IMG/VR virus record: IMGVR_UViG_3300035703_000046
Location: 1 to 64,000 of that record
Length of the DNA: 64,000 bases
Source: a virus
Reading direction: 5' to 3' (one strand)
Of this stretch, positions 268 through 32,571 are shown in pieces. A program made the position numbers and the translations under genes. The notes beneath the pieces are model-generated. The model saw nothing but the letters and a program-made list of their open reading frames with translations, was not told the origin of the DNA and did no database searches. Positions within the stretch are counted from its first letter, which is position 1; every line of letters starts with the position of its first letter.

Positions 268-1497
268 TCACATTCCTAACATGTCAATATCTTTTTCAAC
301 GTCATCTGAAGGTTCTGTTTTTGAAGATTTATCAGATTTATCAGATGGTTTTTTCGATACTACTGGTTGATCTTTAAATTTGCTAAGATCTGGTTTTTCT
401 AGATATTTTCTATAGAATTCGATATCTTTAACAGCCTGATCTAATTCGTCTTTATAAGATTTTACTTTTTCCATCATAGCTGTCATGAGTTTGATAGCAT
501 CTTCTGTGTCGCTGAGAAGTATTCCTCTACCAACAGTAGAGACCCATTCCCACCATCTTGAAGAAGACTGTTTGCTTTTAAGAATTTTATCTAATCTAGA
601 TGCAACTTGAGGGGAAACTGATAGGAAATTATCTAATAATACTTTTGTTTCTTCTACTTTGCCAATTATTTCTTTGTCTAATTTAGAATTAAAGATTAAT
701 TTTGCTAAATTATGACGGGCAACAGCTTGTTGTTTTTTATTTGTAATACTTTCTACTTCGATGCTTCTTGCTGTAATTTTGGCTATTTCTTCGTCCAAGA
801 AAGAAATATTTCGAAACATAGCTTCAACATTTTTAATATAAGGGGCTAAAATTGGTCCTGTTTCGGGATAATCATTAATTACTTGAGATAATTTTTCTAT
901 CAAAGCAGATAAATCTAATTTAAGATTTTCAGAAGCTGGGAAATATTGAGAAGCAATAGCGGAACCAATTAAAGCAGCGGCTGAAAGACCTAATACAGAT
1001 AGCAATTTTGCTTTCATTCCACCCGGAACGCCTGCTTCTTTGACTAAGGATTCTGTGCAAGAATCTGCTAATTTCATTAATGTTTCTTGGTTTTTGCTAT
1101 CCAAGAAATGGGCAAGTTTAATAGTTTCATTGACGAGATCTTGATGGGCTTTAATATAGCGAGTATTGCTTTGAAGAATTTGTGGATTTTTAAGAGCGAT
1201 ATGAGCCATCATATCTTGGCGTTGTTGTAGATTTTCGACTACGCCATTGAATTTGTCATAAGAAGGACCCATGACAACTGTTTTAGGATGGGCTTGCTCT
1301 AATAATTCTTTAGTAGGAGTTGTTTTAACTCCATAGAAAATTTCAGCTGTAGATAGATCTTTTTTATCTTCTTTGGATGGTTTTTTGTCTTTGGAAGAAG
1401 ATTCTTCTTCATCTTCTTCGGCAGCATTAGAAACTAATCCTTTTTCAAGGGCGATTCTAGTATATTCTTCAAAAACATCACTGTGTCTTGGTTGCAT
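268..1497 (-). CDS. Putative processed head-internal/ejection protein with a transmembrane helix
   Basis: About 155-aa pro-region with shared motifs ending LVKEA|G, followed by hydrophobic LLSVLGLSAAALIGSAIASQYF and coiled coil. Confidence 0.55.
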   Translation of the reverse strand: MQPRHSDVFEEYTRIALEKGLVSNAAEEDEEESSSKDKKPSKEDKKDLSTAEIFYGVKTTPTKELLEQAHPKTVVMGPSYDKFNGVVENLQQRQDMMAHIALKNPQILQSNTRYIKAHQDLVNETIKLAHFLDSKNQETLMKLADSCTESLVKEAGVPGGMKAKLLSVLGLSAAALIGSAIASQYFPASENLKLDLSALIEKLSQVINDYPETGPILAPYIKNVEAMFRNISFLDEEIAKITARSIEVESITNKKQQAVARHNLAKLIFNSKLDKEIIGKVEETKVLLDNFLSVSPQVASRLDKILKSKQSSSRWWEWVSTVGRGILLSDTEDAIKLMTAMMEKVKSYKDELDQAVKDIEFYRKYLEKPDLSKFKDQPVVSKKPSDKSDKSSKTEPSDDVEKDIDMLGM

Positions 1498-2584
1498 TTA
1501 ATTTCCTTAAAAATTCACTGGTGATAAATTTATCTACAACTTTTTTTTCTAATTCACTAATATTTTTAGAAACCGTATATTCTTCTGGAAGTTCTACTTT
1601 GCGAGTGCCGATTCTTCCTGGATCTGAAAGTATAAAATTTGTTACATTTCTAAAATTAGCATCAGAATAGATTCTACTTTCTATATCTGGATATTGGTTT
1701 AATTCTGGATAGTAATGCAAAGCCCAGGCTTTTAGGGTAGCGGGAACTGAACCATTGATTAGGTTGGTGGTCCAAACTAATCCACTGATTGGTTCTTCTT
1801 TTTTAGACCCAAAAAAAGATTTTTTTTCTTTTGTTTTTGGTTCTGGTTCTTTTTCTGATTCTGAAGTTTCTTGAGTTTGGGGAGAATCTTCATCTTTTAG
1901 AGACTCTTTCTTTTTGGGACCAAAGATCATGGCAGCACCGGCTAAAAGTCCAAGGCTTAAAAAGATATTCTTAAACATCCAGAAGACTAATCCTTTTCCA
2001 ACATGCCAGAATTTACTTCTTCCATAGGGTGTTGAAAACAAATCTCTTCCAAAAATTTTTTCTATGAAACCAGTTTTTCCGGAAGAGCCTCCAAATCCAA
2101 AAGCAGAATTTTTAACTAAGTATGCTCTTTTGAGTAGAAAATCAAAAGACTCTTCTGCGGTAACGAATCCATCATCTGCGCTTGCGCCTGGGGCTGAGCC
2201 TGCGGCGGCATCAACTGCGGATTTAATTTCTTGAGATGAAATTGGTTCTTGGGCGTCAATTTTAGGTTTTAGGGCTTTTGCTACTTTGACAGCGACGCCA
2301 GAGAGATCGAAACCTATTTGGCTTAGAGCTAAATAGAATAGTCCTAAAAATGGATTGATTCTAAAGGCTACAGAAGGGGCTAAGAGATTAAGGATGCTGG
2401 TAAAGTAGCCGCCTGGAACTTCGGAAGAATCTTGGAATTGATCTCTAAGCCATTGGGCGGCGGAATTACCTCCAAGCGAATCGAAATAACCAGCTTGTTT
2501 AGTTAAGGAATTAGGTACGAGAATTTTCTCTAATTCCTCAACTAAAAAGTTTTCTCTTAAGAGTTTGATTTCTTCGTGGTTCAT
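1478..2584 (-). CDS. Putative processed virion protein with membrane-spanning segments
   Basis: Start revised to MNHEE (ATGA overlap with upstream stop); LTKQA|GYFD site; hydrophobic segments ILNLLAPSVAFRINPFLGLFYLAL and GLVFWMFKNIFLSLGLLAGAAMIFG. Confidence 0.5.
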   Translation of the reverse strand: MNHEEIKLLRENFLVEELEKILVPNSLTKQAGYFDSLGGNSAAQWLRDQFQDSSEVPGGYFTSILNLLAPSVAFRINPFLGLFYLALSQIGFDLSGVAVKVAKALKPKIDAQEPISSQEIKSAVDAAAGSAPGASADDGFVTAEESFDFLLKRAYLVKNSAFGFGGSSGKTGFIEKIFGRDLFSTPYGRSKFWHVGKGLVFWMFKNIFLSLGLLAGAAMIFGPKKKESLKDEDSPQTQETSESEKEPEPKTKEKKSFFGSKKEEPISGLVWTTNLINGSVPATLKAWALHYYPELNQYPDIESRIYSDANFRNVTNFILSDPGRIGTRKVELPEEYTVSKNISELEKKVVDKFITSEFLRKLNATKTQ

Positions 2585-5500
2585 ATGAATTGAATTCGGC
2601 TTAATTGTCTTCGTATTGCTCTTACCCATTCATTGTGTTGGTAATCTAAAGTTGCAATAAATCTATCGGATTCTTTTTCTGGTAAGCCTCTTTGCTGTAT
2701 ATAAGCTATCGCAGACTTCCTTGCACTTGTCAATTGAGTAAGTAAGCTTGTTAAAAATTGTTTATATGAATTAAGAGAACCGTATTGAGAAATTTCCTCA
2801 AATTGATTTCTATATGCAGGAAGATCTGTAACATTATATTGAGCACCTGTTCGAGGGTCTTTATAAAGATAAGTTTGAGTTGCTTGATCTGTTACAACAG
2901 TTCCTGGAATTAAACGATACTTTACAAAATATTGTAAAACTTGAAATGGTTCCAAGGTATCATTTGGGAAGTACATTGTAGCTGCGTTTTGCGGATTTCC
3001 AGAAACGGTTGCCATTGATAAAATGGATTCTCCTGGCGGAACAGATGCAAACCAGAGATTTCCACCAGGATCTTTTGAATCTAGATAGATATTTCTGGCA
3101 TCAAATGGAACTATTCTTTTTGATCCGGGTGTATAAGTGATTTGGCTTGTTCCGGCGCCAGCTTGACCTTCAACTCCAGCAGCGCCTACTAATCCAGCGC
3201 TTCCCAATCGACCTTCTGGACCCCTTGCACCAGTACCAGCACCAGCACCTAATCCGCCTGCTTGATCGCCCAAATCTCCACCTTCAGCTAAAATATCTTC
3301 TAGAAGCAAGGTGTTCCATTTAGAATTTGGCTCGTTGCTAGGTTCAATTCCAAGACTTTTCATCTTTGCTAAAAAGAGCCGAGATAAATTTCTAACAAAT
3401 TGATTATAAGTTTTAGCCAGATTTTGTTCTTTAATTCTATTGCTTTTACTTATCTTTTCAAAAGATCTTTGATTGAACCAATTAATTAATTGACCCCAAT
3501 GAGCGGCAGTGGCATAACTATTCCACCCAAAAGTAGGAATCTTATCACGTACAAAATTAAAAAAGTTTCTTAAATTGAGCAAATCATTTTTTGTTACAGG
3601 AACATCTCCATCTTGATCTGTGCTTTCTGCAGGATTTAAAGTTTCGCTAATTCTATCAAATATTAAATTCAATCCACCCGGAGCACCGGCTAAACTAAAC
3701 CCTTTGCTTTGTAAAAAGGCAGTTATTAACTCATAATTTTTTTCTGCAGCAGCTTTTATTTTTTCCTGATCATTATTGAAAGCCTTAGCTGGTCCAAGGT
3801 TTTCACTAGGAATAGTTTTTACATATTTTCTTGCTGTTTCTAATGACCTTTTGGTATTTACTCCCCAAACTCCTTCTGGATCCGAAATGGCTCCCCCGGT
3901 TTTACCTATGACCATTACTATAGGTGCATCTGCTTTAGCATTAAGTTCCGGAGCTGTCATTAGATAATCACCTAATTTGCCTAAAGCCCATTGCATATGA
4001 TAAACGGCTTTCTTGGTTTCGGTTAGTTCGACTGGCTGAGTGAGTTCAGCTCCGCCGCCGCCAGCTGGTCTTGCTGGAACCGCTCCACCAGAAGGCTTTC
4101 CTTTGGTAGGAATTATAGATGGTTTTGCCTGGGCTTTCTTAACTAGTTCTAAATCAAATAAAAATGAAGCCTCTTTAATAAATTGAGGAGGGATTTGATC
4201 GTTTAATGCCTTAGTATATTCTGTAATTTTACCAACTAATTCAGAGAAATTTTTAACTTTAAAATATGATTTAATACTATTTTTAAGTTGAAAAAAAGTT
4301 TTACTTTTTACAATAATACTATTAAACTTTTGTAAATTTCCCATTTCTGTATCGATTACCGCAATTGTATCTGCGTCATCTTCTTCATTTAGAGATTTTT
4401 TCCAGCTATTTAAACTTCTATATGTTATTTTAATTGGAGAAGTTAGTTCTGAATATTGATCTTTTGTTAATAATTTTTTATTTTTATCAGTAATTTCTTT
4501 TTCTAGTTCTGAGATTGGAGTTTCAGAATTTCTTTGAATGTTTTTAACTCCAGTTTCAATATTTAATAATATTGAAGTATCTGAAAAAATATTTTTAATT
4601 GTATTATTTTCAAATATTTTTAAATCAAATTTTGTGCTTTCATCTTTAATTTCTGAAAATTTAATTAAACTATCAGAAAAATTATCAAGATTAACAGCAT
4701 TAGAAATTTCTTCTGATCTTGTTTTAATAACAGTTGCAGTATCTGAAATTTTAGAAAAATAAGATTTTAAATATTCAGTTGCTTTAGTTTTATTTTCTGA
4801 TGAAAAGAAAAGTTTTTCTTTTTCTCCAGTCCATTTTACAATTTTATCTGCAAGATCATTTGCAAAAGATGCATTGTCCCTACCTACTGGGGGGACAACT
4901 TGCGACTTAAGTTCAACTGGCAATAATTTTTTAACCGCAGATACTAAATCATCAGTACTTGATTCGTATCTTGCAGCCATTTCTATTAACCTAGTGACCA
5001 AAGTTCCTTTATCACTTCCTAATGTAGTGGTTATATATGCATATTCATTAAATTCATCCGTATTAATTTCCGCCGCTTTTAAATAGAAAGATCGAACAGA
5101 GCCACCTGGTTTGACTCTAGAATCATCAAATAAATTGCTAGAATCAATTGATTTAATATTGGCAATAATGCTATTAGCATTGCCTAAAAATATTTGTTTA
5201 TATTTACTTATAATATTTTTATTAATTTTTTCTATTTTAGTTTTTTCTTCTTCGGTAAGAAACTCTGCTCCTTCAGTTTTTTCTGATAGCTCAGTTTCTA
5301 ATAAACCATCTTCTGCAAATTTTAACAATCCCAATGCTTCAGCAGCAGCCACCACCAAATTATTCATTACAGGGGCTGGAGAGCCAGTGCCAGGCTGATG
5401 CGTTAATGTCTCTAAAATCTTCTGTTGACGATCCATGTTGGTGTGAACTACACCCCAGCCACCTTGAGCATCTACTATCTTTGTGCTCTCTGCGTGAGCG

Positions 5501-5796
5501 GCTTGTTGCAATGCACGGCTCTGCTCATCAATTAAATTAGAAAATGCTAATTGAGCTTTTTTGAAAATATTAAGCTTAACTTCTAAAGACTCAGCTTGTT
5601 CATATAAACCAAGCTCACGCAAGCCTGAAGCTAAATTAACCAAATCCTGCATAAAATTACCAGTAGCAGCATATTTATCAATGCTGGTACTAGCTGATTT
5701 GCTTAGTTTGTCCTCAACAATCCATTCTTTTTGAACGGCTGTAGTATAAAATTCTCTGAGAACAGGGCTGGTGATTAAATTAGCTTCTTTTTTCAT
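2581..5796 (-). CDS. Large (1071 aa) putative head-internal/ejection protein with a PG-binding-like segment
   Basis: About 161-aa pro-region with shared motifs; several KxA sites; AVYHMQWAL...EGVWGVNTKRSL resembles a PG-binding domain; Gly-rich linkers. Confidence 0.5.
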   Translation of the reverse strand: MKKEANLITSPVLREFYTTAVQKEWIVEDKLSKSASTSIDKYAATGNFMQDLVNLASGLRELGLYEQAESLEVKLNIFKKAQLAFSNLIDEQSRALQQAAHAESTKIVDAQGGWGVVHTNMDRQQKILETLTHQPGTGSPAPVMNNLVVAAAEALGLLKFAEDGLLETELSEKTEGAEFLTEEEKTKIEKINKNIISKYKQIFLGNANSIIANIKSIDSSNLFDDSRVKPGGSVRSFYLKAAEINTDEFNEYAYITTTLGSDKGTLVTRLIEMAARYESSTDDLVSAVKKLLPVELKSQVVPPVGRDNASFANDLADKIVKWTGEKEKLFFSSENKTKATEYLKSYFSKISDTATVIKTRSEEISNAVNLDNFSDSLIKFSEIKDESTKFDLKIFENNTIKNIFSDTSILLNIETGVKNIQRNSETPISELEKEITDKNKKLLTKDQYSELTSPIKITYRSLNSWKKSLNEEDDADTIAVIDTEMGNLQKFNSIIVKSKTFFQLKNSIKSYFKVKNFSELVGKITEYTKALNDQIPPQFIKEASFLFDLELVKKAQAKPSIIPTKGKPSGGAVPARPAGGGGAELTQPVELTETKKAVYHMQWALGKLGDYLMTAPELNAKADAPIVMVIGKTGGAISDPEGVWGVNTKRSLETARKYVKTIPSENLGPAKAFNNDQEKIKAAAEKNYELITAFLQSKGFSLAGAPGGLNLIFDRISETLNPAESTDQDGDVPVTKNDLLNLRNFFNFVRDKIPTFGWNSYATAAHWGQLINWFNQRSFEKISKSNRIKEQNLAKTYNQFVRNLSRLFLAKMKSLGIEPSNEPNSKWNTLLLEDILAEGGDLGDQAGGLGAGAGTGARGPEGRLGSAGLVGAAGVEGQAGAGTSQITYTPGSKRIVPFDARNIYLDSKDPGGNLWFASVPPGESILSMATVSGNPQNAATMYFPNDTLEPFQVLQYFVKYRLIPGTVVTDQATQTYLYKDPRTGAQYNVTDLPAYRNQFEEISQYGSLNSYKQFLTSLLTQLTSARKSAIAYIQQRGLPEKESDRFIATLDYQHNEWVRAIRRQLSRIQFI

Positions 5797-5803
5797 CTAT
5801 TCC

Positions 5804-6127
5804 TCAAAAAGTTGAATCATCTAGATCTAACATCATTACTGCATTAACAAATTTGCTTCCTAGTTTTTTTGCTAACCCAGGGTTTTCAGAAATTTGTTTT
5901 TGCATATCTAAAAATGCTTTTTTTAAAATTTCATTTTGATTAATGCTTAATTCAAAATTAGCAAAAGATTCAAGGGCATTGGCTCTTTCTTCAAAAGAAC
6001 GTTTTTCCCTTTTAATTTGCTCATCTGTCAATACTTTTTCTTTAGCTTCTCTTTCTAATTCTATAGATAAATAATTTCTAAAGACTTCAGATGACATTAA
6101 TGCATTTAAATCTTGGTCGTTTCCCAT
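5804..6127 (-). CDS. Hypothetical head-associated protein
   Basis: SD AAGGA; N-terminal SSEVFRNYLSIEL matches module A of the neighbouring proteins. Confidence 0.6.
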   Translation of the reverse strand: MGNDQDLNALMSSEVFRNYLSIELEREAKEKVLTDEQIKREKRSFEERANALESFANFELSINQNEILKKAFLDMQKQISENPGLAKKLGSKFVNAVMMLDLDDSTF

Positions 6128-6164
6128 TATATTCCTTTATGTCAAGTATTATATCTTAATATGG

Positions 6165-6527: not shown

Positions 6528-6528
6528 A

Positions 6529-7224
6529 TCAGAAATATGTCTTAAATTCTAAGAAGCTATAAATGGCTGATGGTGGAGCGGTAACAATTCCTACAGGAGG
6601 ATACGTTTCATCAATTCTAGAAGTTGATAATTTACCATCAATGCCGCAAAATAAAATACTATTCAAAGCATAAGAGGCAGAAGTATCAAATTGATCGGTA
6701 GCAGCAATAATTTTACTGGTCCAAACTGTAATTCTACCTGTACCTTCGGTAGAATTTTCCCCTGGAATTCCTGGAACTTGATAGCTGTATCGAACTACAA
6801 CCCTAACAGAATCAAATACACCACTGTTTGTAGAACTGTAATTTAAAGGAGTTCCAGCAGGAACAGTAATAACACCATTCCTAGCATTAAGGACTACCAA
6901 TTCCGGAGTACATACAAATGAATTAGGGTAAATGTTAGCATTCTCTAATTCATATTTTAAATCAATAGGAGTAACGTAAGTAGAGCCTGATAATGTGGGA
7001 ATAGGACAAGTAATAATACAAACTTCATCTACTTTAGCAGTAGAGAAGCTAGTTTTCTTAACGTCATCAATAATTCCAATTGGGCTTAATCCATCGGAGA
7101 CACCGCAAACAACTTGATTGCCATAAACTTTTAGCTGGGCAATCATTCCGGGTTCAAATTCGGAATTAGGATCGACCAGCCAAGAATATGGAAGGCTGTT
7201 ATTGGTGTGTAGGATTCTTAACAT
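6529..7224 (-). CDS. Putative capsid decoration/cement-like protein with an inserted beta domain
   Basis: Start revised to MLRILHTN (7224); PGMIAQL..DGLSPIGIIDD...ITVW..TDQFD..LFCGIDGKLS..VGIV is a beta-clip-like decoration pattern. Confidence 0.5.
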   Translation of the reverse strand: MLRILHTNNSLPYSWLVDPNSEFEPGMIAQLKVYGNQVVCGVSDGLSPIGIIDDVKKTSFSTAKVDEVCIITCPIPTLSGSTYVTPIDLKYELENANIYPNSFVCTPELVVLNARNGVITVPAGTPLNYSSTNSGVFDSVRVVVRYSYQVPGIPGENSTEGTGRITVWTSKIIAATDQFDTSASYALNSILFCGIDGKLSTSRIDETYPPVGIVTAPPSAIYSFLEFKTYF

Positions 7225-7252
7225 GTTTAAATATATATCAGTGAAAATTAAA

Positions 7253-7900
7253 TCAATCTTTTTTGAAAGAATAATGACGTTTGCAAATAGCTTTTTCTTT
7301 ATGGGCTCCCTTGGGGGCTTTCTTCCAGCCTTTGCATTCTTTGGACATATCTTCGTCATCGGCATCCCATGCATCCATGCAATCATAAGCTAATCCGCAA
7401 TCGGCAGCGGCATCGGCGCAGTATCTACTACAAAAAGCTTTATCTTTAACCGTATTAACTGGTTCGCCGCAATAAGCGCAAGTTTTTGCCATTAAATCAT
7501 CGTGAGCTTCGTGGACAACAATATCTGAAGCATCGTTGCCATCAAACATCCATCCTTTTTCTTTTAAGTTTTTTACAGCTTGTTTTGAGCTTTTAGGGAT
7601 AGATTTATCTTTAATTTTTTTGCCAGAAGAATCGGCGAGCATTACGTCGTTTTTGTCACCCTCATCATCTTCCTCGCCTTCCTCATCTTGATTCTCACCT
7701 AAGGAAGATAACATCTTATCAAGCATTGAGGCTTCATCTTCTAAACCGACTTCATCTAGGAGGGTAGCGGACAATTCAATTAATTTGATTGCTTTTTTTA
7801 AATGTGTATCTTTAGAAATTTCTTCTTGAGAAGCAATTATAGAAAGATTATATTCTACGCTGTCAATAAAATCTGATTCTGCAAATTTTTTAATAAACAT
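7253..7900 (-). CDS. Acidic head-associated protein with a metal-binding Cys cluster
   Basis: MFIKKFA|E; tag LSATLLDEVGLEDEASMLD; CAYC...FCSRYCAD. Confidence 0.55.
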   Translation of the reverse strand: MFIKKFAESDFIDSVEYNLSIIASQEEISKDTHLKKAIKLIELSATLLDEVGLEDEASMLDKMLSSLGENQDEEGEEDDEGDKNDVMLADSSGKKIKDKSIPKSSKQAVKNLKEKGWMFDGNDASDIVVHEAHDDLMAKTCAYCGEPVNTVKDKAFCSRYCADAAADCGLAYDCMDAWDADDEDMSKECKGWKKAPKGAHKEKAICKRHYSFKKD

Positions 7901-7908
7901 ATTAATCC

Positions 7909-8100
7909 TTAGAATTTAGAAGATAGCTTTTCCATTAGTTTTGTTAATTTTTTAGAATATTTTGGTTTATCAGCCAAATCAAAACATTTAGCGGCTTCAT
8001 TTAAGCAGCGTAAAGCAACTGTTAGTTTTAAATCAGAAGACTCTAGTTGATGTTCTGAGTTTAATTTTTCCATCATTTCTAAAGCTAGATCATCTTTCAT
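7909..8100 (-). CDS. Small protein consisting largely of the shared helical tag
   Basis: Start revised to MKDDL (ATGA overlap, SD GGAGG); LNEAAKCFDLADKPKYSKKL. Confidence 0.6.
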   Translation of the reverse strand: MKDDLALEMMEKLNSEHQLESSDLKLTVALRCLNEAAKCFDLADKPKYSKKLTKLMEKLSSKF

Positions 8101-9101
8101 ACTTCGTCCTCCCAAGCAAATCCAGTATCTAAAGCATCAAGTGCATGATGCATGTCTTTCAAATCTTCATCTTCTTCGCCATCTTCTTCTTCATCCATTT
8201 CTTCGAACTCATCCATCTCTTCGTCCATTTCAGCATCTTCTTCTTTTAATTCTTCAAGCTCCTCATCTTCAGAGGATTCCTCTAACAAAGACTCAATTTC
8301 ATGCATACAATCAAGAAGTTCCATAACTTCTTCTTCGTCAAAACCTTCTTCATCTTCTAAAATTTCATCAAGTTGCTCTTTGCAGTCTTTAAGTAATACT
8401 AAGAGTTCTTCTCTGGACATATCTTCTTCATCAGAGAAATCTTCGCCGTTATCTTCTTGAGTTTCTTCTACTGCCTCTTCGGATTCTTTCAACTCTTCTT
8501 CGTCATCTTTATCTTCATCGTCTGCTGCAAAATCATCAAGAGAGACCATAAACCCTCTTAAACTTGGATCTTTTTCATATCTATCCTTCCAATAACTAGG
8601 GGATTCGGGCTCGATCATTGAAAGACTTGCTTCTGCACTTTCTTTTGCAGGCGCAGATTTAGAAGGATTTTTTTGAAGTGATCTGAAAAAATCTTCTAAA
8701 TCATCTGCATTAAAAGAGTCCATTTCAGATAATATTTCATCTGTTAATTCTACAGATTCCTCAGCCTCTTTTAATAATTTATTAGATGCAATTAGTAATA
8801 AAGAAGCCGCCTTATCAAATCCTTGAGCATCTAATTCTTCAGAAGCTTCAAGAATCATATTAAACATTTCATTTGCAGATTTTGATTTCATATCATTGCA
8901 GCTAGAGCAATCATTGGAGCATTTCGTTCCAGCTTTTCTGCACTTGCAACCTTGCCCACAATCGCAATCTGCTCCGCATTCAGAACAGCAAGATGCTTTA
9001 ACTTTTTTGGCTTTCTTGGCGGCAAATTTGCCAAATCCAAAAGATGGACTAGACATTAAAGAATCCATTTCAGCAGCAACTAAATTACTAATTTTTTTCA
9101 T
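8097..9101 (-). CDS. Metallothionein-like Cys cluster plus very acidic protein (putative prohead core protein)
   Basis: 10 Cys in 31 aa; tag EASEELDAQGFDKAASLL; E/D-rich C-terminal half. Confidence 0.55.
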   Translation of the reverse strand: MKKISNLVAAEMDSLMSSPSFGFGKFAAKKAKKVKASCCSECGADCDCGQGCKCRKAGTKCSNDCSSCNDMKSKSANEMFNMILEASEELDAQGFDKAASLLLIASNKLLKEAEESVELTDEILSEMDSFNADDLEDFFRSLQKNPSKSAPAKESAEASLSMIEPESPSYWKDRYEKDPSLRGFMVSLDDFAADDEDKDDEEELKESEEAVEETQEDNGEDFSDEEDMSREELLVLLKDCKEQLDEILEDEEGFDEEEVMELLDCMHEIESLLEESSEDEELEELKEEDAEMDEEMDEFEEMDEEEDGEEDEDLKDMHHALDALDTGFAWEDEV

Positions 9102-9109: not shown

Positions 9110-9385
9110 CTATTTAACTAATCCGTAGAGTTGACCAACATGTTTAACTTCTTCATCTGAAGAAGCTTCAATTAATGAAATTGCTGCTGCTTTTAAAGCT
9201 GTAGCAGTTTTTGACATACCTCTTTTATTTAACTCGATTGCCATTTCTGCAATTTTAGCAACGGCTAAAGAAGTTGAATTATTTTTTTCTTCTAAAATAG
9301 AGGCTGTCTTAATGGAAGCAGTTTTAACAGATTCGCTTGCTAAAATGCCATTCATTTCTATATCTAAATTAAACTCTGGTTTCAT
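9110..9385 (-). CDS. Small head-associated protein (KTAS repeats plus helical tag)
   Basis: VKTASIKTAS; IAEMAIELNKRGMSKTATAL. Confidence 0.6.
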   Translation of the reverse strand: MKPEFNLDIEMNGILASESVKTASIKTASILEEKNNSTSLAVAKIAEMAIELNKRGMSKTATALKAAAISLIEASSDEEVKHVGQLYGLVK

Positions 9386-9477: not shown

Positions 9478-12400
9478 TCAATATTTGCGGTTAGCAAAAG
9501 CTGCTGCAAATTCTGTGATAAGGTCGTTTGATTCTGTTGAAGCAGTTGCAATGAGTTCTTCGCTCATTAAACCAATTTGTGGCATTGCATAAGATGCGTT
9601 GCGTGTCATTGGTGTGCGTTCAACGTGTTTCTTCATAGAGTCAAAGCCTGCGTCGTTGAAGCTCATGAGTTCATCAACTTGTTCTTTGATAGCATGTTTG
9701 TCACGACCGATGAGACCTTTGGCTGCCATTTCGTTAGCAAGGTCATAGGCGCGAGCAATTTTAACGCGGAAAGTTTCCATGTTTTCTGCTTTTTTGGCTT
9801 GAGCATGTTCTGAAGTTAATTCAGCTGCAAATTCTTTGCTGGCTTTATCTTTGGCTTGACCATAGAAGTCTTTCCAGTATTTAACTGCAGCTGCATCGAG
9901 ACCTGCTTTGACGAGTTGATCAACTTCAGATGCTTCAATGCGACCGGCTGTAACAAGTTTCTGAATATCTTCTGCTGCTTTCTTGGTTTTTGCAGAAACT
10001 TCTTTTGTTGCAACTTCATGAACTGCTGAAGCAACTTCTTCGAGAGTTTCAACTTTAGCGCCTTCGCCTTTCATGCCTGAAAGTATTGGACCGCCTTTAC
10101 CGTGTGCATCTTGAAGAATTTTGCTGAATTGCATTGCTTTGGCAGCTTGTTTTGCACGATATGCTGCGCGACCTTCTTTGGTGGTAAGATCATCTGAGGC
10201 GAGTGCTGCTTTGGCATCTTCTGCTTTTTGGAATTCCATAGTGTTTCCTGATTTATCTGTTACTTTAACGGGACCATGATGAACGTCATCGGCTGCATCG
10301 TCTGAATCCATCATTGCAAGGATATCATCAACTGAAAGTTCATCGCCTTTATCCATGTCCATCATATGATGCATGTCTTTTTTGCTCATGTGGTCCTTTG
10401 CTGCTCCGTCATCAGCTAATGATGCTGGGCTATATGGTTTTGGTTTTGCTGCTTGTGGTTTGCCTGCAACTGCTCCTGAAAGACCTGGAGTAGAGGAGGC
10501 AGTTCCACTAACAGCTGCTTCGCCAGGAGCAGGGGCTTTTCCACCAGATGTAAAGGCAGTTCCTCTTTCTTTAGAGCTTAAAAGAAGTTTGCCTTTAAGA
10601 GCTTCAGATAGTTGTTTTAACTCTGCTGGAGTTAATTTAGCAGAAAGTGTATTTACAACTGGTTTTGGTAATTCTTGAGACATTTCAACAAATGGATCTT
10701 GTGCAACTTTAACCATGCGAACTTCTTGTTTTGCTTGTTTGACAAGTACTTCTGTTGAAGAAGCATATTTGCTAAATGCGCTCATAAGAGTGTATGCATC
10801 GGCAATCACTTCGCGTGCTGCTGCTTTGCTTTCTGCAACTGTATCTAGTACTTCAGCAGAAGCGTTCTTTACAAGAACTTGTCTTGCAAGTCTAAGTTCA
10901 TCAATAACGCCTGCTAATTTAACAGATGTTTCTTTCATTGCTGAAAGAATTGTTCTGCCAAGTTTTTTCTGCATTGCCATGAGAGAAGCTGTTGTTGGAG
11001 ATAATGCAGGTGATTGTGCAAGACCTTCAAGTTCAGGAGTTGGTGATTCTGCAGCTTTTTCAGTGAGAAGTGCTTCTACACCTTTGCGAAGATCTGCGTG
11101 GAGTTCTTCGAGTTTGTCAAGTAATCCAGGAAGGTCTTTAGCTGGGTCTCCAGATACGCCTGCTGCTGCTGGTTTTTCTGCTGGCTCTTCGCCCATTTCA
11201 GGAAGTTCTGGCATTTCGGGCATAGCTAAATCTGCTGGAGCAGGAGCTGCTGGAGCGGCTGGTGCTGCGGGAGCAGGTGCAGCCTGAGCGGATTTGTACA
11301 TGCTGGCAACTTTTTCTAGACCATTGCTGCGGATTTTTGCAATTAATGAACGACCAAAGCCTTCATTTGCAACGCTGTCATAAAGTGCAACTGTGCGACC
11401 GGCAGTGATTTCATTAACACTTGCTGAGAATACAAGTTTTTTGTCTGCAAATACCTCCCAACGTGAATTGGCAAGATCGTCATTGCCATTTGCAGAAGCT
11501 GCCTTTAAGAATCTAGCGGTGAGTTTTGCACGAGAAAGCATTTGTTTCTTTTCTAAGTCTTTGGGGAAAAGACCGTCAACATCGCCTGTATCTGGGAATG
11601 GAGGAGCGCCTACCATTTGTTTATCCTGAGTGTTGCGGATTTTATCTGCATCTTCTTTTGGATATGTTTGTGGTTCGTTAGCTCCGCCGCCACCTTGGAA
11701 GTAAGCTTGTTTTTTAGCAAGATTTGCTTTTGCGGCTTCTAATGCTGCTTGACGACGAATTGAGCGCATTTCTTCTTCTGCTAAGCGTTGTAATCTGCGT
11801 TTGCGAGCTTCTTCGGTTTCGCCGAAAGATTCATAACCAGGGTGCATTCCATCAACTGGACCGGTGTTCATTTGACCGACCATTTGTTTGTCTTGGGTGT
11901 TGCGAACCTTTTCTGCATCTTCTTTTGGATATGTTTGTGGCTCGTTCATTCCGCCGCCACCTTGAAAATAAGCCTTTTTCTGAGTTGTCATTTGTTCATC
12001 CTTATTAAAACTGGAAAGTTTGTTAATTCTTTCAAATATTGTGTCTAATTTATCAGAAATGTTTTTTAGTGCATATTCTGAAGATTTATCAGAAGCTTCT
12101 TTTCCTAATTGATTAGGTGAATTTTCTGATGGTTTGTCTTTTACTTCTTTCAATAATTCTTCAATTTGTGCTTTTAATGCACCTAATTGCTCTGTAGCTT
12201 CTTCTAAAGAAGATACTAATCCTTCCATCTTGCCAGAAGTTTCTGGTTTTGATGTCTCTGATTCAGATGATTCTGACTCAGAGGCTTCGGGATCTTTTTT
12301 CAAGAATTCTTGTTCTTTTGCTTCAACATATTTAGCAATGCTATTAGCAGCTGCTATAATTGTTTTAATTTTTGCCTTTGGATCGGCACCATTTACAACA

Positions 12401-13092
12401 ATGGATAATTCAATTGGGTTTAAATCCAAATTGACTTCACCATAACATGATTTATTTTTCATATGGTTACAGAAATCGGATTCTGTACGAGCCACATTGC
12501 CACAATCATAGCAAACTGCTTTACCAACACCTGTTCCCATGGAAACAGAAGCTGCATAACCAGTTGAAACTTTTCGTGCTAAATCTGGATAGTTCTTTTT
12601 ATCCAAAGCGCACAATGCAACTACTCTTTTTAATTTGTGATCATAATAAGTATCGACAATTAATCCTCGAATCATGTCAACAGAAGAGCTTTTATGATCT
12701 AAGCAAAGAGGTTTGCCAACCCATTTTTTATGAGCAGAAATAAGCTCTTGGGCGGGGAAAATATCAGAATTATTATTTTTATATGGTCTTATACTTGGGT
12801 CGTTGCTTTTCCAAATAACTCCATCGCCTTTTTTCTCCCACCAAACTTTAACTGGCTCGCCAGAAGCTGTAACTTTTAAGCTGCCATCTTCATTGATAGC
12901 TGAATGCTCAGCGGCGTGCATCATTACTGCGCTAAAATAAAGAAAATCATCTCCTTTTGGAGCAATAATTTTTAATTCTTTGGCAATTTTTTCAAATTTA
13001 TTTTGAATCTCTGGATCGGATAAAACGCTTTCAACGTCTTGAATATCCGATGCTGTAATTGAAATAGATTCACCAATTTTTACTAACGACAT
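9478..13092 (-). CDS. Prohead maturation protease fused to scaffolding protein
   Basis: N-terminal about 250 aa has GKPLCLDH (His), SVSMG (Ser), a CxxC..CxH knuckle and ELSIVVNGADPKAKI, typical of HK97/assemblin-fold head proteases; long Ala/Pro-rich coiled-coil scaffold-like C-terminus. Confidence 0.75.
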   Translation of the reverse strand: MSLVKIGESISITASDIQDVESVLSDPEIQNKFEKIAKELKIIAPKGDDFLYFSAVMMHAAEHSAINEDGSLKVTASGEPVKVWWEKKGDGVIWKSNDPSIRPYKNNNSDIFPAQELISAHKKWVGKPLCLDHKSSSVDMIRGLIVDTYYDHKLKRVVALCALDKKNYPDLARKVSTGYAASVSMGTGVGKAVCYDCGNVARTESDFCNHMKNKSCYGEVNLDLNPIELSIVVNGADPKAKIKTIIAAANSIAKYVEAKEQEFLKKDPEASESESSESETSKPETSGKMEGLVSSLEEATEQLGALKAQIEELLKEVKDKPSENSPNQLGKEASDKSSEYALKNISDKLDTIFERINKLSSFNKDEQMTTQKKAYFQGGGGMNEPQTYPKEDAEKVRNTQDKQMVGQMNTGPVDGMHPGYESFGETEEARKRRLQRLAEEEMRSIRRQAALEAAKANLAKKQAYFQGGGGANEPQTYPKEDADKIRNTQDKQMVGAPPFPDTGDVDGLFPKDLEKKQMLSRAKLTARFLKAASANGNDDLANSRWEVFADKKLVFSASVNEITAGRTVALYDSVANEGFGRSLIAKIRSNGLEKVASMYKSAQAAPAPAAPAAPAAPAPADLAMPEMPELPEMGEEPAEKPAAAGVSGDPAKDLPGLLDKLEELHADLRKGVEALLTEKAAESPTPELEGLAQSPALSPTTASLMAMQKKLGRTILSAMKETSVKLAGVIDELRLARQVLVKNASAEVLDTVAESKAAAREVIADAYTLMSAFSKYASSTEVLVKQAKQEVRMVKVAQDPFVEMSQELPKPVVNTLSAKLTPAELKQLSEALKGKLLLSSKERGTAFTSGGKAPAPGEAAVSGTASSTPGLSGAVAGKPQAAKPKPYSPASLADDGAAKDHMSKKDMHHMMDMDKGDELSVDDILAMMDSDDAADDVHHGPVKVTDKSGNTMEFQKAEDAKAALASDDLTTKEGRAAYRAKQAAKAMQFSKILQDAHGKGGPILSGMKGEGAKVETLEEVASAVHEVATKEVSAKTKKAAEDIQKLVTAGRIEASEVDQLVKAGLDAAAVKYWKDFYGQAKDKASKEFAAELTSEHAQAKKAENMETFRVKIARAYDLANEMAAKGLIGRDKHAIKEQVDELMSFNDAGFDSMKKHVERTPMTRNASYAMPQIGLMSEELIATASTESNDLITEFAAAFANRKY
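11609..11976 (-). repeat. Two-copy ~35-codon repeat inside the scaffold (K[KQ]AYFQGGGGxNEPQTYPKEDAxKxRNTQDKQMVG)
   Basis: Copies at about 11878-11976 and 11609-11712, near-identical in protein with synonymous DNA differences. Confidence 0.9.
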
Positions 13093-22699: not shown

Positions 22700-24568
22700 T
22701 CATCTCCATCTAGGTAAATAACCTAAAGTAATTGGAGGATCTTTACTAGCCCCGGCTTCTTTATAGTTGTCGGGGTTTTTAATTTTAAAATTATTGCTTG
22801 CTAAAGATAAAGCTCCAACATAAGCATATGTTAGACCCATAAGACCGTCATTGGGAATATGACCTTTTACATATTTAGTCATAGGTTCTCCGCTGCGGTC
22901 ATAAGTTACTTTGGTGTCCATGCTAGCGCAATGCTCTACTAGCCAAGCAATTTTTTCATAATCTTTATAAGGAAATTTAATTTCTCCTCTTTTAAATTTT
23001 TCAAATATTTGCTCTAATACATAATCTTTTTCAAAAATAACTGTATTTAAATTATCTTCTTCTTTTAAGCGATATTTGCCAGTTACGTTATGCAAGCCGC
23101 TTGCGGCTAAAAATTTATGACCATATCTTTTTTGTAATATTTTGCAAATTTCATATCCGAATCCAATATCTCCTAATGCCAAATCTGGATTATAACGTCT
23201 AAATAATTGTTCAGCTCTTTCAACTTTATAATCTAAATCATTTTTCATGAACCTTTCAGCCCAAGCAACTCTAAATAATTTCGGACCTTCTTGAACTAAA
23301 ACAATAGCAACGCTATAAGATTTTCCTCCAGAAGACTCTTCATCCCCTGCTCCTGAATCTTCTACTTTTTGACCCCAATCAAACCCAATGATAATTTTTC
23401 TATCAGGACTAGATGACAACCTAGAAGCCAACATCATGGTTTGTTCACCGCAAATCTGATCAATTTCATCAGTGGTAATTGGTTGACTTGTACCAGAATA
23501 AAATTCTCCTAAAATTTCATTTCGATAAGCTCTCTCAGTATTTACAGGATGATTCTCTGGCTTTTCCCCAATAACTTTCCATCTTGGAAAATTTGGAATA
23601 TATAATTGATTTAAATGATAACCCATATATTGGGATTTGGGATCTTTATTATAACAGACCCATTTTCCTCTTTTTGCAGCTGCTCTTTTATCTTGCTCAT
23701 GTCCGCAATGGACACATTTAACTATAAAACCATGGCTTGGATGAGATTCAGGCAAAGAATCTTCTATCCAAATATTTTCCCAGTCATCGCTCCCTGGAGT
23801 GTATAAAGGGAAATCTTGCTGACATTTTTCACAACCTAAATGATAAAATTGTTGATTTGATACTGACCAGCGTTTATGAAAATCAGATCCTTTTTTCTTA
23901 GGAGTACCAAAATAAAATTGAACTCCGTCACCCGTAGCTCCATATTGAGCCTGAGTTAAGCTTTTTGTGGCGTTTTCAATTGCGGCAGTGCGCATATCTT
24001 GAATTTCATCACCTAAGAAAATGTCAGCAGTAATACCACGTAAACGATCTCCGGTTAACCCCGTTGATTCAATAAAAATGTGGTTTCCTCCTTGGAAATA
24101 CTTTAATTGCTGAGAATCAGCATCAGGCATTATCCTGGTTTCAATATAAGGTATTTTTTTAATTTTATCTTTAGGAGAATCTACTAGCTTGGAGGTGTTA
24201 ACTACAGTATCAAATTTAGTAACAGAAAATCTTCTTGCCATTTCCAATTGAGGAAAGCAATGCATAATTCGTATGGGAGGCTTGGTTTTAGTACCGTACT
24301 GACCAGATGCTAATAAAAATAATTCAATAAATAATGCCGCCATAGTGCCACCGACTTGGCGACCTTTAAGAAAGATGACTTTTTTACCTTTTCTAGTTAG
24401 AGCGGTCACTCCAACATATCGATAAATATCAATGTATGGCTCCCAACCATCTCTTAATTTTAAGGGCTTTCCATCAATTGTAAGATATTTTTCACACCAA
24501 TAAACAGGATCCATTTCTAGGATCTTTTCTTTCATTTCTAGAAAAAGATCTTTTTCTTTCTTGCTCAT
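22700..24568 (-). CDS. terL: Terminase large subunit (lambda GpA-like)
   Basis: KGRQVGGT, LRG, DEIQD, GTP; CEKC...CVHC zinc site; C-terminal nuclease IGFDWG...ND. Confidence 0.9.
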   Translation of the reverse strand: MSKKEKDLFLEMKEKILEMDPVYWCEKYLTIDGKPLKLRDGWEPYIDIYRYVGVTALTRKGKKVIFLKGRQVGGTMAALFIELFLLASGQYGTKTKPPIRIMHCFPQLEMARRFSVTKFDTVVNTSKLVDSPKDKIKKIPYIETRIMPDADSQQLKYFQGGNHIFIESTGLTGDRLRGITADIFLGDEIQDMRTAAIENATKSLTQAQYGATGDGVQFYFGTPKKKGSDFHKRWSVSNQQFYHLGCEKCQQDFPLYTPGSDDWENIWIEDSLPESHPSHGFIVKCVHCGHEQDKRAAAKRGKWVCYNKDPKSQYMGYHLNQLYIPNFPRWKVIGEKPENHPVNTERAYRNEILGEFYSGTSQPITTDEIDQICGEQTMMLASRLSSSPDRKIIIGFDWGQKVEDSGAGDEESSGGKSYSVAIVLVQEGPKLFRVAWAERFMKNDLDYKVERAEQLFRRYNPDLALGDIGFGYEICKILQKRYGHKFLAASGLHNVTGKYRLKEEDNLNTVIFEKDYVLEQIFEKFKRGEIKFPYKDYEKIAWLVEHCASMDTKVTYDRSGEPMTKYVKGHIPNDGLMGLTYAYVGALSLASNNFKIKNPDNYKEAGASKDPPITLGYLPRWR

Positions 24569-26811: not shown

Positions 26812-26812
26812 A

Positions 26813-27753: not shown

Positions 27754-27757
27754 TTAA

Positions 27758-29410
27758 TCATATTGCTGTTGTTGGTTTCGTTGAGACCGGAGCTGCTGGT
27801 GCGGCTGGAGAAGTTGGTAAATTAACTGGCTGAGCAAGATCTTCCTCTACTTCAATTACTGGTTTTTCTACCTTTGTTTGTTCATCTAATTTTCTTTGTT
27901 GTTTTCTTGCTTTTTCTTTATTTTCCTGATCTTCAAGAGAAGACCTTACGCCTTCTAAATCAACTGCAGAGGGGCTGGTTGAAGTTTCTTTCCCTAACAA
28001 ATCTAATTCTTGCTCTTTTGGATTTTTAATAGATCCCTTTAATTTGGAAAGAACTTCCTCAATACGTGTTAAGGCGTATTGATTGCTTTCTAAGCTTTTA
28101 GATGAGGCTTCTGCTAGACCTGGGAAGAAAGAACTTAGATTTAATTGATCCATCATAAGATCAATAATAGCCAATTGTCTTGGAATCTCTCTAGTTCTAA
28201 ATAAATTAACCAATGTATCCAGTCTTTCAATTACATCCGTAATTGTTATTCCGGATAATGCATTTTCTAATAAATCATCTGTTTTTTTATGAACTAAAGT
28301 ATCTGCACTTTCTTGAGGTTCATCAACAATTTCAATTTCAGCTTTTGGAACAGCTATAGGCTTTGCAGGCACTGTCCCTGCTGCTGGTACAGGGCTTAAT
28401 TCTGGAGAAGGAGCTAGTGCTGGCTCTGGCGCAGGAGCAGCCAAAGGGTCTAAGGCTTGAGCCATAACCACCATATTTTCAGAAATAGGATCGGTTCCTT
28501 CCAGCATGTCTACGATATCATTGAAGTCAGGATCGAATTCCTCAACTTGTATCGCAAAATTATCATCTGAATTTTCATCATCAATAGCGTTTTGATCACC
28601 AAAACCACTTCCAAGTAATGATTTTGAAACTTCTGCCAAAGGATCTTTTGCAGGTTCTGCGGGAGGACCACCAGGACCAGGGGGAAGGGGAGTAATCCCC
28701 GGTGGAGGAGGCACCGCATCCATTCCAGGTTCAAGCGGAGGAGGTGGAGGAACTGGATCTTGAGCAATTTTAATTAATTCTCTTGCTGTTTTAGGAAATC
28801 CTTTATGAGCTAATATATTAGCTTCTTTTATAATTAAGTCCTCTAAAATTGTTGAACTAGCATGTTTAATTGGAGCAACTTGAACTAATCGTTTTACTCT
28901 TTGCAATTCTTCTAGCCATTTATGAATTCCAACATCTAATCTTTTAGACAACTCTCTTTGGACATCTGGATCTGTTGCTAATTTTTCAGCAGACATTAAT
29001 CTGCTAATAATAGATTTAATTTTTTTATTAATTTTAAATTGAGGATCGTCTTCTTCTGGTAATTTAATATTGGGCTTTAATTCATTTAAAGCAGGTGGCT
29101 TGTTAGGTGCGATTACGCCAGGTGCAACTGCTAAATAATTTGAATCAACCATGCCAGGTAAAAACTGAGCTGTTTTATATGAATTTTGATTATTGCCTTG
29201 GTAATATTTTACCCAATGATTGAAATCATTCTTTTCCATGCTATCCCAATTTTGTGTTAATTGTTCGCGGGTTTTTGAAATATCATAGCCTTGATTTGCA
29301 TATAAATACATGGTTTCTAAAGTTTTAACCCATTTATTTATGTCATAAGACTCAATATAATCAACAGAGTAACCTTGAGGATATGCTGTTTTATTGATTT
29401 TATTACTCAT
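27758..29410 (-). CDS. Pro-rich putative prohead core protein with multiple KxA sites
   Basis: INKTA|Y, YKTA|Q, IKHA|S, IKEA|N, LIKIA|Q; tag EANILAHKGFPKTAREL. Confidence 0.55.
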   Translation of the reverse strand: MSNKINKTAYPQGYSVDYIESYDINKWVKTLETMYLYANQGYDISKTREQLTQNWDSMEKNDFNHWVKYYQGNNQNSYKTAQFLPGMVDSNYLAVAPGVIAPNKPPALNELKPNIKLPEEDDPQFKINKKIKSIISRLMSAEKLATDPDVQRELSKRLDVGIHKWLEELQRVKRLVQVAPIKHASSTILEDLIIKEANILAHKGFPKTARELIKIAQDPVPPPPPLEPGMDAVPPPPGITPLPPGPGGPPAEPAKDPLAEVSKSLLGSGFGDQNAIDDENSDDNFAIQVEEFDPDFNDIVDMLEGTDPISENMVVMAQALDPLAAPAPEPALAPSPELSPVPAAGTVPAKPIAVPKAEIEIVDEPQESADTLVHKKTDDLLENALSGITITDVIERLDTLVNLFRTREIPRQLAIIDLMMDQLNLSSFFPGLAEASSKSLESNQYALTRIEEVLSKLKGSIKNPKEQELDLLGKETSTSPSAVDLEGVRSSLEDQENKEKARKQQRKLDEQTKVEKPVIEVEEDLAQPVNLPTSPAAPAAPVSTKPTTAI

Positions 29411-30116: not shown

Positions 30117-30131
30117 GTAACCTCAAATTAA

Positions 30132-30160
30132 AAAGCGGGATTCAAAATTGATCCCGCTTT
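30132..30160 (-). terminator. Rho-independent terminator
   Basis: AAAGCGGGAT/ATCCCGCTTT stem with a T tract on the minus strand. Confidence 0.75.
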
Positions 30161-30181
30161 ATAATATATCTATTCAAGTGA

Positions 30182-30952: not shown

Positions 30953-32571
30953 CAGCAGTTCCAATATACTTTTGAGGTTACAAAGTGAGCTGATTCTGTA
31001 CCGTCTTCCATTCCTTTACGGTGAAGCGGGCGGCACTGACCAAATTTATCTTGGTACACTTTGCCTACTGGAAGACCGGTATGGCTGCAAATTAAACTTG
31101 AACTATTTGCAGTCTTTATCGTATGTGAGCATCCAGAAGATGCCTGCTTATGAAGATTAAATTCACCTTTAAGGGCTTGTTTATAAATGGCAAATGCCAT
31201 GTTGTAGAAGTGAGCGTCTCCAGCTTCACGTAGAATATGAAGAGCATCTTCTGCTTTTTCAAAGTTCTCTTCTTGTAATGCTGAGGCAAGACTTAAAAAT
31301 AACTCTTGTGGTTTTAAATCATAAAGAGGAGAAGCCATTGCCATAGCGGAAAGATCATTTGTTTCATTGATAATTTCAGAAATTCCCTCTGATGAGAATT
31401 CTTTAATTGCATCTTCTGCTACAACAGTTCTTGGCAATAATACGTTTGTTTGAGAGATTTTAACGGGTACTTTAAATCCTCTGCGACCATCAATAGAGGC
31501 GGCATAAACGATTCCATCTTTGTCAGATGAAGCTACTCCTACCTGAGCCTTATATCCAAACGATGCTAGTTTTCTAACAATCATTTCTCTGCCAGTGGCT
31601 ACCACTTTTTTACCATGATATAATTCAGCTTCACCAGCCTTGGAAGATAATCTCTCTCCAAGAGATTTGTACTCTTCTGGGACCTCGAATTGAGGCATAG
31701 CAACATCGGAAACTTCATTTCCTACATTGGGATTGTACAAAAGAACCCCTGGGGCGTCTAAAGAAACGCTATCGCCAGAAGCCGTTTTCATTCTAAATAA
31801 AGCTAACTCTACTTCGGATAATGGCTCGGCGGTTTTAGAAACAAAATTTAATACTTGTTCCGCATTAACCTGCATTAATTTACCTGCGTTTTTAACAAGG
31901 TAATCATCTAATAGAGATGCCGTTAGTTCAACAATTCCTTCTGGAGTAACAAAGGAAGATGGAATTGCAGGCTCACTGTCTACAATCTCTACTGGTAATA
32001 GGACTGAAGTTTCGCCTCGTGGAGTTTCAAAAGAAGCTCTACAAACAAGCCAAGTATCGTTTCCAGCAACCACTTGTGCGAGCTTTGGATTTGCACCAAC
32101 AGAGCGTAAAGCGTATGCGGTATTTCTTTCGGCAGAACTTGCTGCTGTCTTAGAGTAAGTTTTAACTACAGCATTTTTGCCATCGTTGAATAATGAAGAT
32201 AATGTTTCAACTAAATTTGAATCTACATCTTTATGAGCAATAGATAATAAATCTTCACCTTCTCTGAAATCTTTTTTAATTTCTGGAGCTTTTTCCTGAG
32301 CGCCAAGCTCTTCTGCAAAGTAAGAAGCAAACTTGTTATTATTGCTATATAAAGTGTTGTATATTTTCTTTAATTCAAAACGAGAAATCATTGGTTGGGA
32401 GCTAGCTTTTTTATTTAAAAAGTTGCACATCCCAACGATTGTGGCGTCATATGGAAAAACCTCTGCAAGTTTTTCAGCTTTTTTAGCTAAAACACCAGTG
32501 AAGAAGCTTTCTTGTTCTTTGACTGCTTCTGCCGCTTTTAAAATAACGTTATTTAATTGATTAAAATCCAT
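30952..32571 (-). CDS. Putative head protein with an internally duplicated alpha/beta domain and many KxA sites
   Basis: Two related repeats; KKA|S, KTA|A, KNA|G, KTA|S, KQA|S; C-terminal C..C.H..C. Confidence 0.55.
   Translation of the reverse strand: MDFNQLNNVILKAAEAVKEQESFFTGVLAKKAEKLAEVFPYDATIVGMCNFLNKKASSQPMISRFELKKIYNTLYSNNNKFASYFAEELGAQEKAPEIKKDFREGEDLLSIAHKDVDSNLVETLSSLFNDGKNAVVKTYSKTAASSAERNTAYALRSVGANPKLAQVVAGNDTWLVCRASFETPRGETSVLLPVEIVDSEPAIPSSFVTPEGIVELTASLLDDYLVKNAGKLMQVNAEQVLNFVSKTAEPLSEVELALFRMKTASGDSVSLDAPGVLLYNPNVGNEVSDVAMPQFEVPEEYKSLGERLSSKAGEAELYHGKKVVATGREMIVRKLASFGYKAQVGVASSDKDGIVYAASIDGRRGFKVPVKISQTNVLLPRTVVAEDAIKEFSSEGISEIINETNDLSAMAMASPLYDLKPQELFLSLASALQEENFEKAEDALHILREAGDAHFYNMAFAIYKQALKGEFNLHKQASSGCSHTIKTANSSSLICSHTGLPVGKVYQDKFGQCRPLHRKGMEDGTESAHFVTSKVYWNC

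Follow-up and report, generated by a model that had tools for sequence, protein, structure and literature searches.

A conserved helical hairpin in head-cluster proteins of an uncultured huge phage and its possible role in prohead assembly

The loading of head-internal proteins is understood only for phage T4, through its capsid-targeting sequence (CTS), and partly for P22, and is an open question for giant phages (PMC5694885). We analysed the opening 64,000 bases (hereafter the window) of a phage contig 91,314 bases long, IMG/VR record IMGVR_UViG_3300035703_000046, which derives from an uncultured huge phage and has a completeness estimate of 21%. An initial annotation of the window, made from its letters alone, had proposed that eight short strings, with weaker versions in two further proteins, represent one recurrent helical tag that lies near K-x-A sites in otherwise unrelated proteins and is a candidate capsid-targeting signal. 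All eight strings are present in the minus-strand open reading frames (ORFs) for which they were quoted, starting (with proteins named by the first base of their ORF) at amino acid (aa) 51 of 2581, aa 125 of 268, aa 40 of 7253, aa 38 of 7909, aa 83 of 8097, aa 45 of 9110, aa 193 of 27758 and aa 1116 of 9478. The quoted K-x-A sites are present as well: IFKKA at aa 77 of 2581, LVKEA at aa 151 of 268, LLKEA at aa 109 of 8097 and LIKIA at aa 212 of 27758.

Nearly all genes of the window are carried on the minus strand, and those considered here include one long gene for a protease joined to a scaffold-like region:

9478..13092, minus strand: prohead protease plus long scaffold-like region, 1204 aa (phrog_18299, phage G gp19)

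Its protease domain matches phrog_18299, a head maturation protease family (E 2e-12, aa 120-214), and gp19 of Bacillus phage G, the only cultured relative, shares 33% identity with it over aa 43-237, in the protease domain. The remainder beyond the protease domain is a probable scaffold, and we refer to the whole as the protease-scaffold. A megablast search against phages gave no nucleotide match to any deposited phage; our comparisons draw on 25 related IMG/VR loci, on contigs of up to 409 kb, whose protease-scaffold proteins are 38-91% identical to this one. Pfam and PHROGs returned no annotation for the motif proteins.

The M2 hairpin and the proteins that carry it

Five of the eight strings (those of ORFs 2581, 7253, 8097, 9110 and 27758) are instances of one motif, here called M2, a 31-aa helix-Gly-helix hairpin with the core A/S-x2-L-x3-G-[FLM]-x-(K/E)-x-A-x2-L. 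The string in 7909 belongs to a degenerate orthologue of genuine copies, that of 268 is a different conserved hairpin, and that of the scaffold C-terminus is not supported as M2. A further M2-like hairpin, beyond those initially listed, lies inside the protease-scaffold. The copies are as follows:

9173..9265, minus strand: M2 hairpin, aa 41-71 of the 91-aa protein of ORF 9110-9385
8775..8867, minus strand: M2 hairpin, aa 79-109 of the 334-aa protein of ORF 8097-9101, then LLKEA at aa 109
7927..8019, minus strand: degenerate M2, Gly replaced, in the 68-aa protein of ORF 7909-8115
7700..7792, minus strand: M2 hairpin, aa 37-67 of the 215-aa protein of ORF 7253-7900
5563..5655, minus strand: M2 hairpin, aa 48-78 of the 1071-aa protein of ORF 2581-5796
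28754..28846, minus strand: M2 hairpin, aa 189-219 of the 550-aa protein of ORF 27758-29410
11260..11352, minus strand: M2-like basic hairpin, aa 581-611 of the protease-scaffold (ORF 9478-13092)

M2 was retained in orthologues at all 25 related loci and at 46 loci of the 27758 family, and an iterated search of the relatives converged on a 31-position profile with the consensus AFDNLLELADILDEAGLEKEAEELEKALESL, its best decoys lying near E 1. A genome scan with a hidden Markov model (HMM), which the initial annotation had suggested as a check, gave weak support when built from this genome: with four-sequence HMMs, the left-out fifth instance scored between E 0.002 and >1 (E 0.002-0.12 for the best of them), and 2581 and 27758 were not recovered. 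In contrast, an HMM trained exclusively on relatives with a protease-scaffold identity of 49% or less, and with no member of the 27758 family, placed the same five proteins first among the 115 ORFs of the contig: 2581 (E 8e-11, 34.6 bits), 8097 (E 3e-6, 20.0 bits), 27758 (E 1e-3, 11.8 bits), 7253 (E 0.012, 8.4 bits) and 9110 (E 0.018, 7.9 bits). The best score among 20 shuffled proteomes was 8.6 bits.

Alignments of whole families point the same way. When 21 family alignments were compared with hhalign, the best off-family match was always the motif site of another family, in register (P 1e-16 to 7e-4). The 9110 family matched 8097 at P 1e-10 and 7909 matched 7253 at P 1e-13 to 2e-16; the two pairs matched each other at P 3e-5, 2581 matched 9110 at P 2.4e-4, and 27758 matched 8097 at P 1.6e-4 and the scaffold at P 0.002, with aa 574-612 of the scaffold matching the 27758 family at P 2e-4. 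The 8097 family was linked to those of 9110, 7253, 2581 and 27758. A motif-only profile of the 27758 family (35 sequences) had M2 sites of other families as almost all of its top matches, together with the internal hairpin of one scaffold orthologue, and the 27758 orthologue was itself found by models holding no member of its family. The description of the carriers as otherwise unrelated holds in that BLAST found no similarity among the M2 families once the motif was masked; it does not hold throughout, since 9110 lies next to 8097 and 7909 next to 7253, the members of each pair probably being tandem paralogues, and jackhmmer links the 2581 N-terminus, which is homologous to the whole of 9110, to both 9110 and 268.

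The hairpin is confined to the head-gene cluster. We searched four relatives (301, 409, 359 and 267 kb, the second of them 96% complete) in six frames with a 32-row M2 alignment (A1) that contained no member of the 27758 family, and the only matches fell in genes just downstream of the protease-scaffold gene and in the 27758 orthologue. With nothing matching outside the head cluster and the 27758 orthologue in these 267-409-kb relatives, the motif is not equally common in non-virion proteins, a point on which the initial annotation had made its proposal depend. Three to five M2-type genes always directly follow the protease-scaffold gene. We found no description of the M2 motif in the literature.

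Predicted structure and conservation agree at the level of single proteins. In the 9110 family L52, G56, K59 and A61 are invariant, and the AlphaFold2 model of the 91-aa protein has five helices, of which 37-54 and 58-74 form the M2 hairpin with G56 in the loop (block-mean predicted local distance difference test 89-94 for M2). This protein and that of 7909, initially described as almost only the tag, are indeed conserved and little more than pro-region modules; the Gly of 7909 was lost in this phage, its relatives reading A-G-M-x-K-E-A. In the 2581 family L55, G63 and A68 are invariant, and a conserved F/Y-K-x-A-Q/E site (aa 77-82; K79 and A81 at least 90% conserved) directly follows the hairpin. 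The AlphaFold2 model of the first 165 residues of 2581 consists of separate helices on disordered linkers (predicted template modelling score 0.30), and M2, with helices 48-61 and 65-88, is the best-defined part of this N-terminus. M2 is the third most conserved 31-aa window of the 7253 family. The hairpin of 27758 ends in I-A-Q ahead of a Pro-rich linker, and across its family (46 loci) the strongly conserved hairpin leads directly into A-Q and then a variable linker rich in Pro/Gly. The scaffold hairpin ends in Y-K-S-A-Q, then a Pro/Ala linker, and is always basic (mean net charge +3.1 over 20 orthologues), whereas the averages of the other M2 families range from -0.3 to -2.9.

The carriers have further features of their own. 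In the 8097 protein (8097-9101, minus strand), about 11 Cys are concentrated close to the N-terminus (aa 38-69) and the C-terminal half is extremely acidic; orthologues of this protein range from 205 to 1289 aa. The C-terminus of 7253 is Cys-rich, and its orthologues show a sub-threshold DUF6321 match. At about aa 860-890, the 2581 protein (2581-5796, minus strand) contains a collagen-like G-x-y run, with a weak match to a tail-fibre PHROG (E 0.0045).

Several other candidate segments were not confirmed as M2. The 268 string lies in a separate conserved hairpin, M4, which carries D/N where M2 has the Gly turn and whose hhalign link to M2 is not significant (P 0.007-0.014). The scaffold C-terminal segment, though conserved, agrees with the pattern in its first half only, and hhalign gave it no significant link either:

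1018..1158, minus strand: M4 hairpin, aa 114-160 of the protein of ORF 268-1497, then LVKEA and a hydrophobic helix
9712..9765, minus strand: scaffold C-terminal segment VKIARAYDLANEMAAKGL, aa 1110-1127

Neither of the weaker versions was borne out: the C-terminus of 17890 is a different conserved hairpin, unrelated to M2, and 30182 gave no signal. A pattern match at aa 44 of the portal is not conserved, and a site at aa 214 of 25305 lies outside any hairpin. The C-terminal 40 residues of 17890 (17890-19452, minus strand) form a helix-turn-helix, Y-x2-A-x2-L-L-K-Y-S ... L-L-A-L-A-E-G-I-L-D, found in all 18 sequences of that family.

Modular pro-regions and K-x-A sites

Alignment of the 2581-like and 268-like families revealed a modular pro-region in the order M1, K-x-A site, M2, F/Y-K-x-A-Q/E site and M3, with M2 in the 2581-like proteins only; 268-like pro-regions have M4, then L-V-K-E-A and a hydrophobic helix. 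M1 stands at the N-terminus with the consensus S-x-V-F-x-E-Y-x-K-I-A-x-E-K-G-L-V, and its HMM matches 2581 (E 3e-9), 268 (E 1e-11) and, weakly, 5804. M3 is a 40-aa module, L-x2-A-H-P ... G-x-V-E-x-L, conserved in relatives. The two modules occur at these positions:

5707..5775, minus strand: M1 N-terminal helix module, aa 8-30 of the 2581 protein
1423-1488, minus strand: M1, aa 4-25 of the 268 protein
5395-5517, minus strand: M3, aa 94-134 of the 2581 protein
1186-1311, minus strand: M3, aa 63-104 of the 268 protein
10003..10122, minus strand: M3, aa 991-1030 of the protease-scaffold (M3 HMM E 1.4e-4)

Eight other scaffold orthologue ORFs from related loci, of which two are identical, also match the M3 HMM, and the 91-aa protein of 9110 aligns with residues 17-78 of the 2581/268-like pro-region. 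With both M3 and an M2-like hairpin present in the scaffold, the pro-regions look like assortments of scaffold-type modules. Hairpin, M1, M3 and K-x-A sites amount to a modular code that can be read from sequence in this clade and that the scaffold partly shares. The pro-region occurs in over 1000 metagenome protein clusters: its profile matched 1169 clusters among 1.84 billion representative proteins. In the best 150 of these 1169 clusters, the match starts within the first six residues in 146, and the proteins are 158-1184 aa long. The head region of phage G contains no M2, M1 or M3, with only a weak match in the gp19 N-terminus. The N-terminus of gp19 (gene at L081:15851-16753) includes SLGLVKTAAKVVKIA, in which there are two h-x-K-x-A sites (h, hydrophobic).

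The K-x-A sites, putative cleavage sites of the prohead protease, flank or overlap M2 at conserved positions and are enriched in head-side proteins. Within the initial 33 kb, the pattern h-x-K-x-A reaches a density in ORFs of about 5.8 per 1000 aa (z about 6 relative to shuffles), roughly three times the 2.0 per 1000 aa (z 1.0) of the contig's other 81 ORFs. Its extended form G-h-x-K-x-A was observed 12 times against 2.6 expected, a count reached in none of 1000 shuffles, and nine of the 12 sites are in head-side proteins. In four families (8097, 9110, 27758 and the scaffold) this extended site coincides with the M2 turn. After M2, the 7253 family lacks the conserved K-x-A-Q/E/S site that the 2581, 8097, 27758 and scaffold families have there.

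Possible roles of the hairpin

Our data suggest, at slightly less than an even chance, that M2 is a scaffold-like co-assembly module of pro-regions that is removed by the prohead protease. Across a large clade of uncultured huge phages, short helical modules on flexible linkers would make up the N-terminal pro-regions of three kinds of product: proteins that are ejected or head-internal, two to four tiny core proteins, and the scaffold. The hairpin would let these proteins co-assemble with the prohead scaffold core, either by bundling with the scaffold's basic hairpin or by binding wherever the scaffold binds; the basic charge of the scaffold copy and the acidic or neutral charge of the others would suit hairpin-to-hairpin pairing, a suggestive but unproven fit. 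The protease would then remove or shred the hairpin at the flanking K-x-A sites (in four families, at the site in the turn itself), and mature proteins would thereby be released inside the head. One M2-bearing protein of a distant relative (L015:13749-15320) has a PG_binding_1 domain (E 3e-8, above the cut-off), which fits a cell-wall-directed ejected protein.

Several observations weigh against co-assembly as the role of M2. Four of the ten proposed instances (268, the scaffold C-terminus, 17890 and 30182) fail our tests, and M2 is absent from the 268, 1478 and 5804 proteins, so it cannot be a universal address. Adjacent paralogy by itself explains the similarity within the 9110/8097 and 7909/7253 pairs, and a short HMM built from the 9110, 8097 and 7253 groups did not retrieve the 2581 family, leaving hhalign and jackhmmer as the source of that link. 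The hairpin of 27758 closes a larger conserved domain of 220 aa instead of standing free, and M2 is one module among several (M1, M3 and M4). A search for the major capsid protein in the whole window and the four large relatives, made with PF05065, PF07068, PHROGs, BLAST and an hhalign comparison to phage G gp27, recognised none; the protein may be too divergent or encoded past the end of the contig.

The plainness of the fold weighs in the same direction. M2 has the features of a generic alpha-alpha hairpin with a Schellman-type Gly cap (helix, L-x3-G-hydrophobic, helix), and L-x3-G-h is a standard, generic helix-capping pattern. The best matches of the A1 profile in the PDB were de novo designed helical proteins (E 0.003), followed by a designed binder, designed coiled coils and Rop, and a Foldseek search of the 9110 model against the PDB and BFVD returned generic helical miniproteins only (E at least 0.5). 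Since M2 is close to an idealised hairpin with a generic cap, part of the likeness between families could be convergent, and this may apply to the links at P 1e-3 to 1e-4. The initial proposal of a capsid-targeting signal is partly supported: the hairpin is real and confined to the head-gene cluster, but M2 is neither an N-terminal CTS-like tag nor a universal address.

A stronger form of the co-assembly reading appears unlikely. Here M2 would act as a portable address, docking on the basic copy in the scaffold and then being cut by the prohead protease at its own turn (G-h-x-K-x-A), and together with M1 and M3 it would constitute a modular 'scaffold-mimic' loading code for diverse head proteins, reusable for foreign cargo. 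If the module were portable, it could provide a cargo-loading handle for phage-derived capsids.

Alternatively, M2 could be mainly a module for protease recognition and processing, marking proteins for shredding into small peptides and not for the head, which we consider doubtful; the protease would then cut in the turn and the first turn of helix 2 (G-h-x-K-x-A) and at the flanking K-x-A sites. The excess of G-h-x-K-x-A sites would be expected on this account, as would their occurrence outside hairpins (at the portal N-terminus, where GFSKKAS at aa 67 is family-conserved, in the 25305 ORF and at aa 156 of 2581), the three h-x-K-x-A sites packed inside the 31 hairpin residues of 27758 and the invariance of K59 and A61 in the 9110 family. 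However, many members of the 2581 and 7253 families keep the hairpin without the Lys, a site at the start of a stable helix is a poor protease substrate, and the K-x-A specificity is itself a deduction from sequence.

It also seems improbable, though the difference from co-assembly is mainly one of emphasis and the two accounts overlap, that the M2 proteins are simply minor scaffold or core proteins in which M2 self-associates, as in Rop-like four-helix bundles, and is no cargo tag. T4 offers a precedent in the composition of its core: gp67 and gp68 are small products of genes that neighbour those for protease and scaffold, become part of the core and are degraded at maturation (PMC5694885). 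The tiny 9110 and 7909 proteins resemble them in gene position and size only, with no homology detected. That these two have no cargo, that three to five such genes always stand directly after the protease-scaffold gene, that 8097 has a long acidic tail and that the PDB matches include Rop and designed coiled coils would all suit this account, whereas the large and differing C-terminal parts of 2581 (1071 aa) and 27758 (550 aa) and the PG_binding_1 domain of one relative do not.

Least probable is convergence, in which an idealised Gly-turn alpha-hairpin arose or persisted independently with no common partner or function: the designed proteins among the PDB matches, the generic Foldseek results, the several inter-family links at just P 1e-3 to 1e-4 and the weak within-genome leave-one-out test speak for it, but they are opposed by the empty remainder of the 267-409-kb genomes with their hundreds of genes, the in-register hhalign matches, the 27758-family HMM, nearly all of whose top matches are M2 sites, and the co-occurrence of M1, M3 and K-x-A sites in the same proteins.

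Relation to known loading systems and neighbouring genes

The internal proteins IPI-III and Alt of T4 carry the CTS (Mullaney and Black 1996), which associates with the core of the scaffold, is cut off by the prohead protease and is portable to foreign proteins (PMC5694885), the use that the initial annotation envisaged for its tag. Like the CTS, M2 is short and common to otherwise unrelated proteins of the head cluster. The T4 sequence comprises the first 10-20 residues, with an L/I-x-E site for cleavage at its end. M2, by contrast, forms an internal hairpin of 31 residues (aa 37-110, or 189-219 in 27758) with sites of the K-x-A type, is one of several modules and has no sequence similarity to the CTS. 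The extreme N-terminus of the 2581 and 268 proteins is held not by M2 but by M1.

A second precedent is the helix-turn-helix of P22 scaffolding protein (PMC9965877, PMC12005531), a small two-helix hairpin that mediates procapsid incorporation and whose fusions load foreign proteins, an application already made for cargo (PMC9962691). M2 is likewise a small two-helix hairpin, with a putative role in incorporation. The P22 domain, however, sits at the C-terminus, is basic and contacts the coat N-arm, whereas M2 never occupies the C-terminus and is for the most part neutral or acidic; the one basic copy is that of the scaffold, which lies internally, at aa 581-611 of 1204. A PDB profile search found no sequence match to the P22 domain. 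Since M2 has neither the defining position of the T4 CTS nor that of the P22 domain, and shares sequence with neither, it is a member of neither group, although by analogy it may work like them.

Giant phages provide the third comparison, with long N-terminal propeptides on SPN3US gp47, gp50, gp53 and gp54 and on phiKZ inner-body proteins (PMC5694885, PMC10052503). These propeptides, of about 80-130 residues on ejection-type proteins, are thought to be CTS-like and perhaps to contribute to the core or scaffold. They belong to the phiKZ-like lineage, end in A/S/G-x-E and have no reported common hairpin module, whereas the pro-regions described here are visibly modular, have modules in common with the scaffold and carry K-x-A sites. 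Removal at A/S/G-x-E by a protease of the gp175/gp245 type also does not describe the present phage, whose sites are K-x-A and whose protease matches phrog_18299 and phage G gp19.

The window carries further recognisable genes beyond the protease-scaffold:

19511-21232: portal
21383-22696, plus strand: PhoH
22700-24568: terminase large subunit, about 25% identity to Bacillus phage terminases

Next to the M2-bearing gene 7253-7900, the listed ORF 6529-7386 (minus strand) overlaps it by 134 bases. In the ESM Atlas record, the 6529 protein begins only near base 7224 (about aa 55 of the listed ORF), which makes a true overlap of the two genes improbable. The same 6529 ORF has a weak ESM Atlas lead to lambda gpD-like head decoration.

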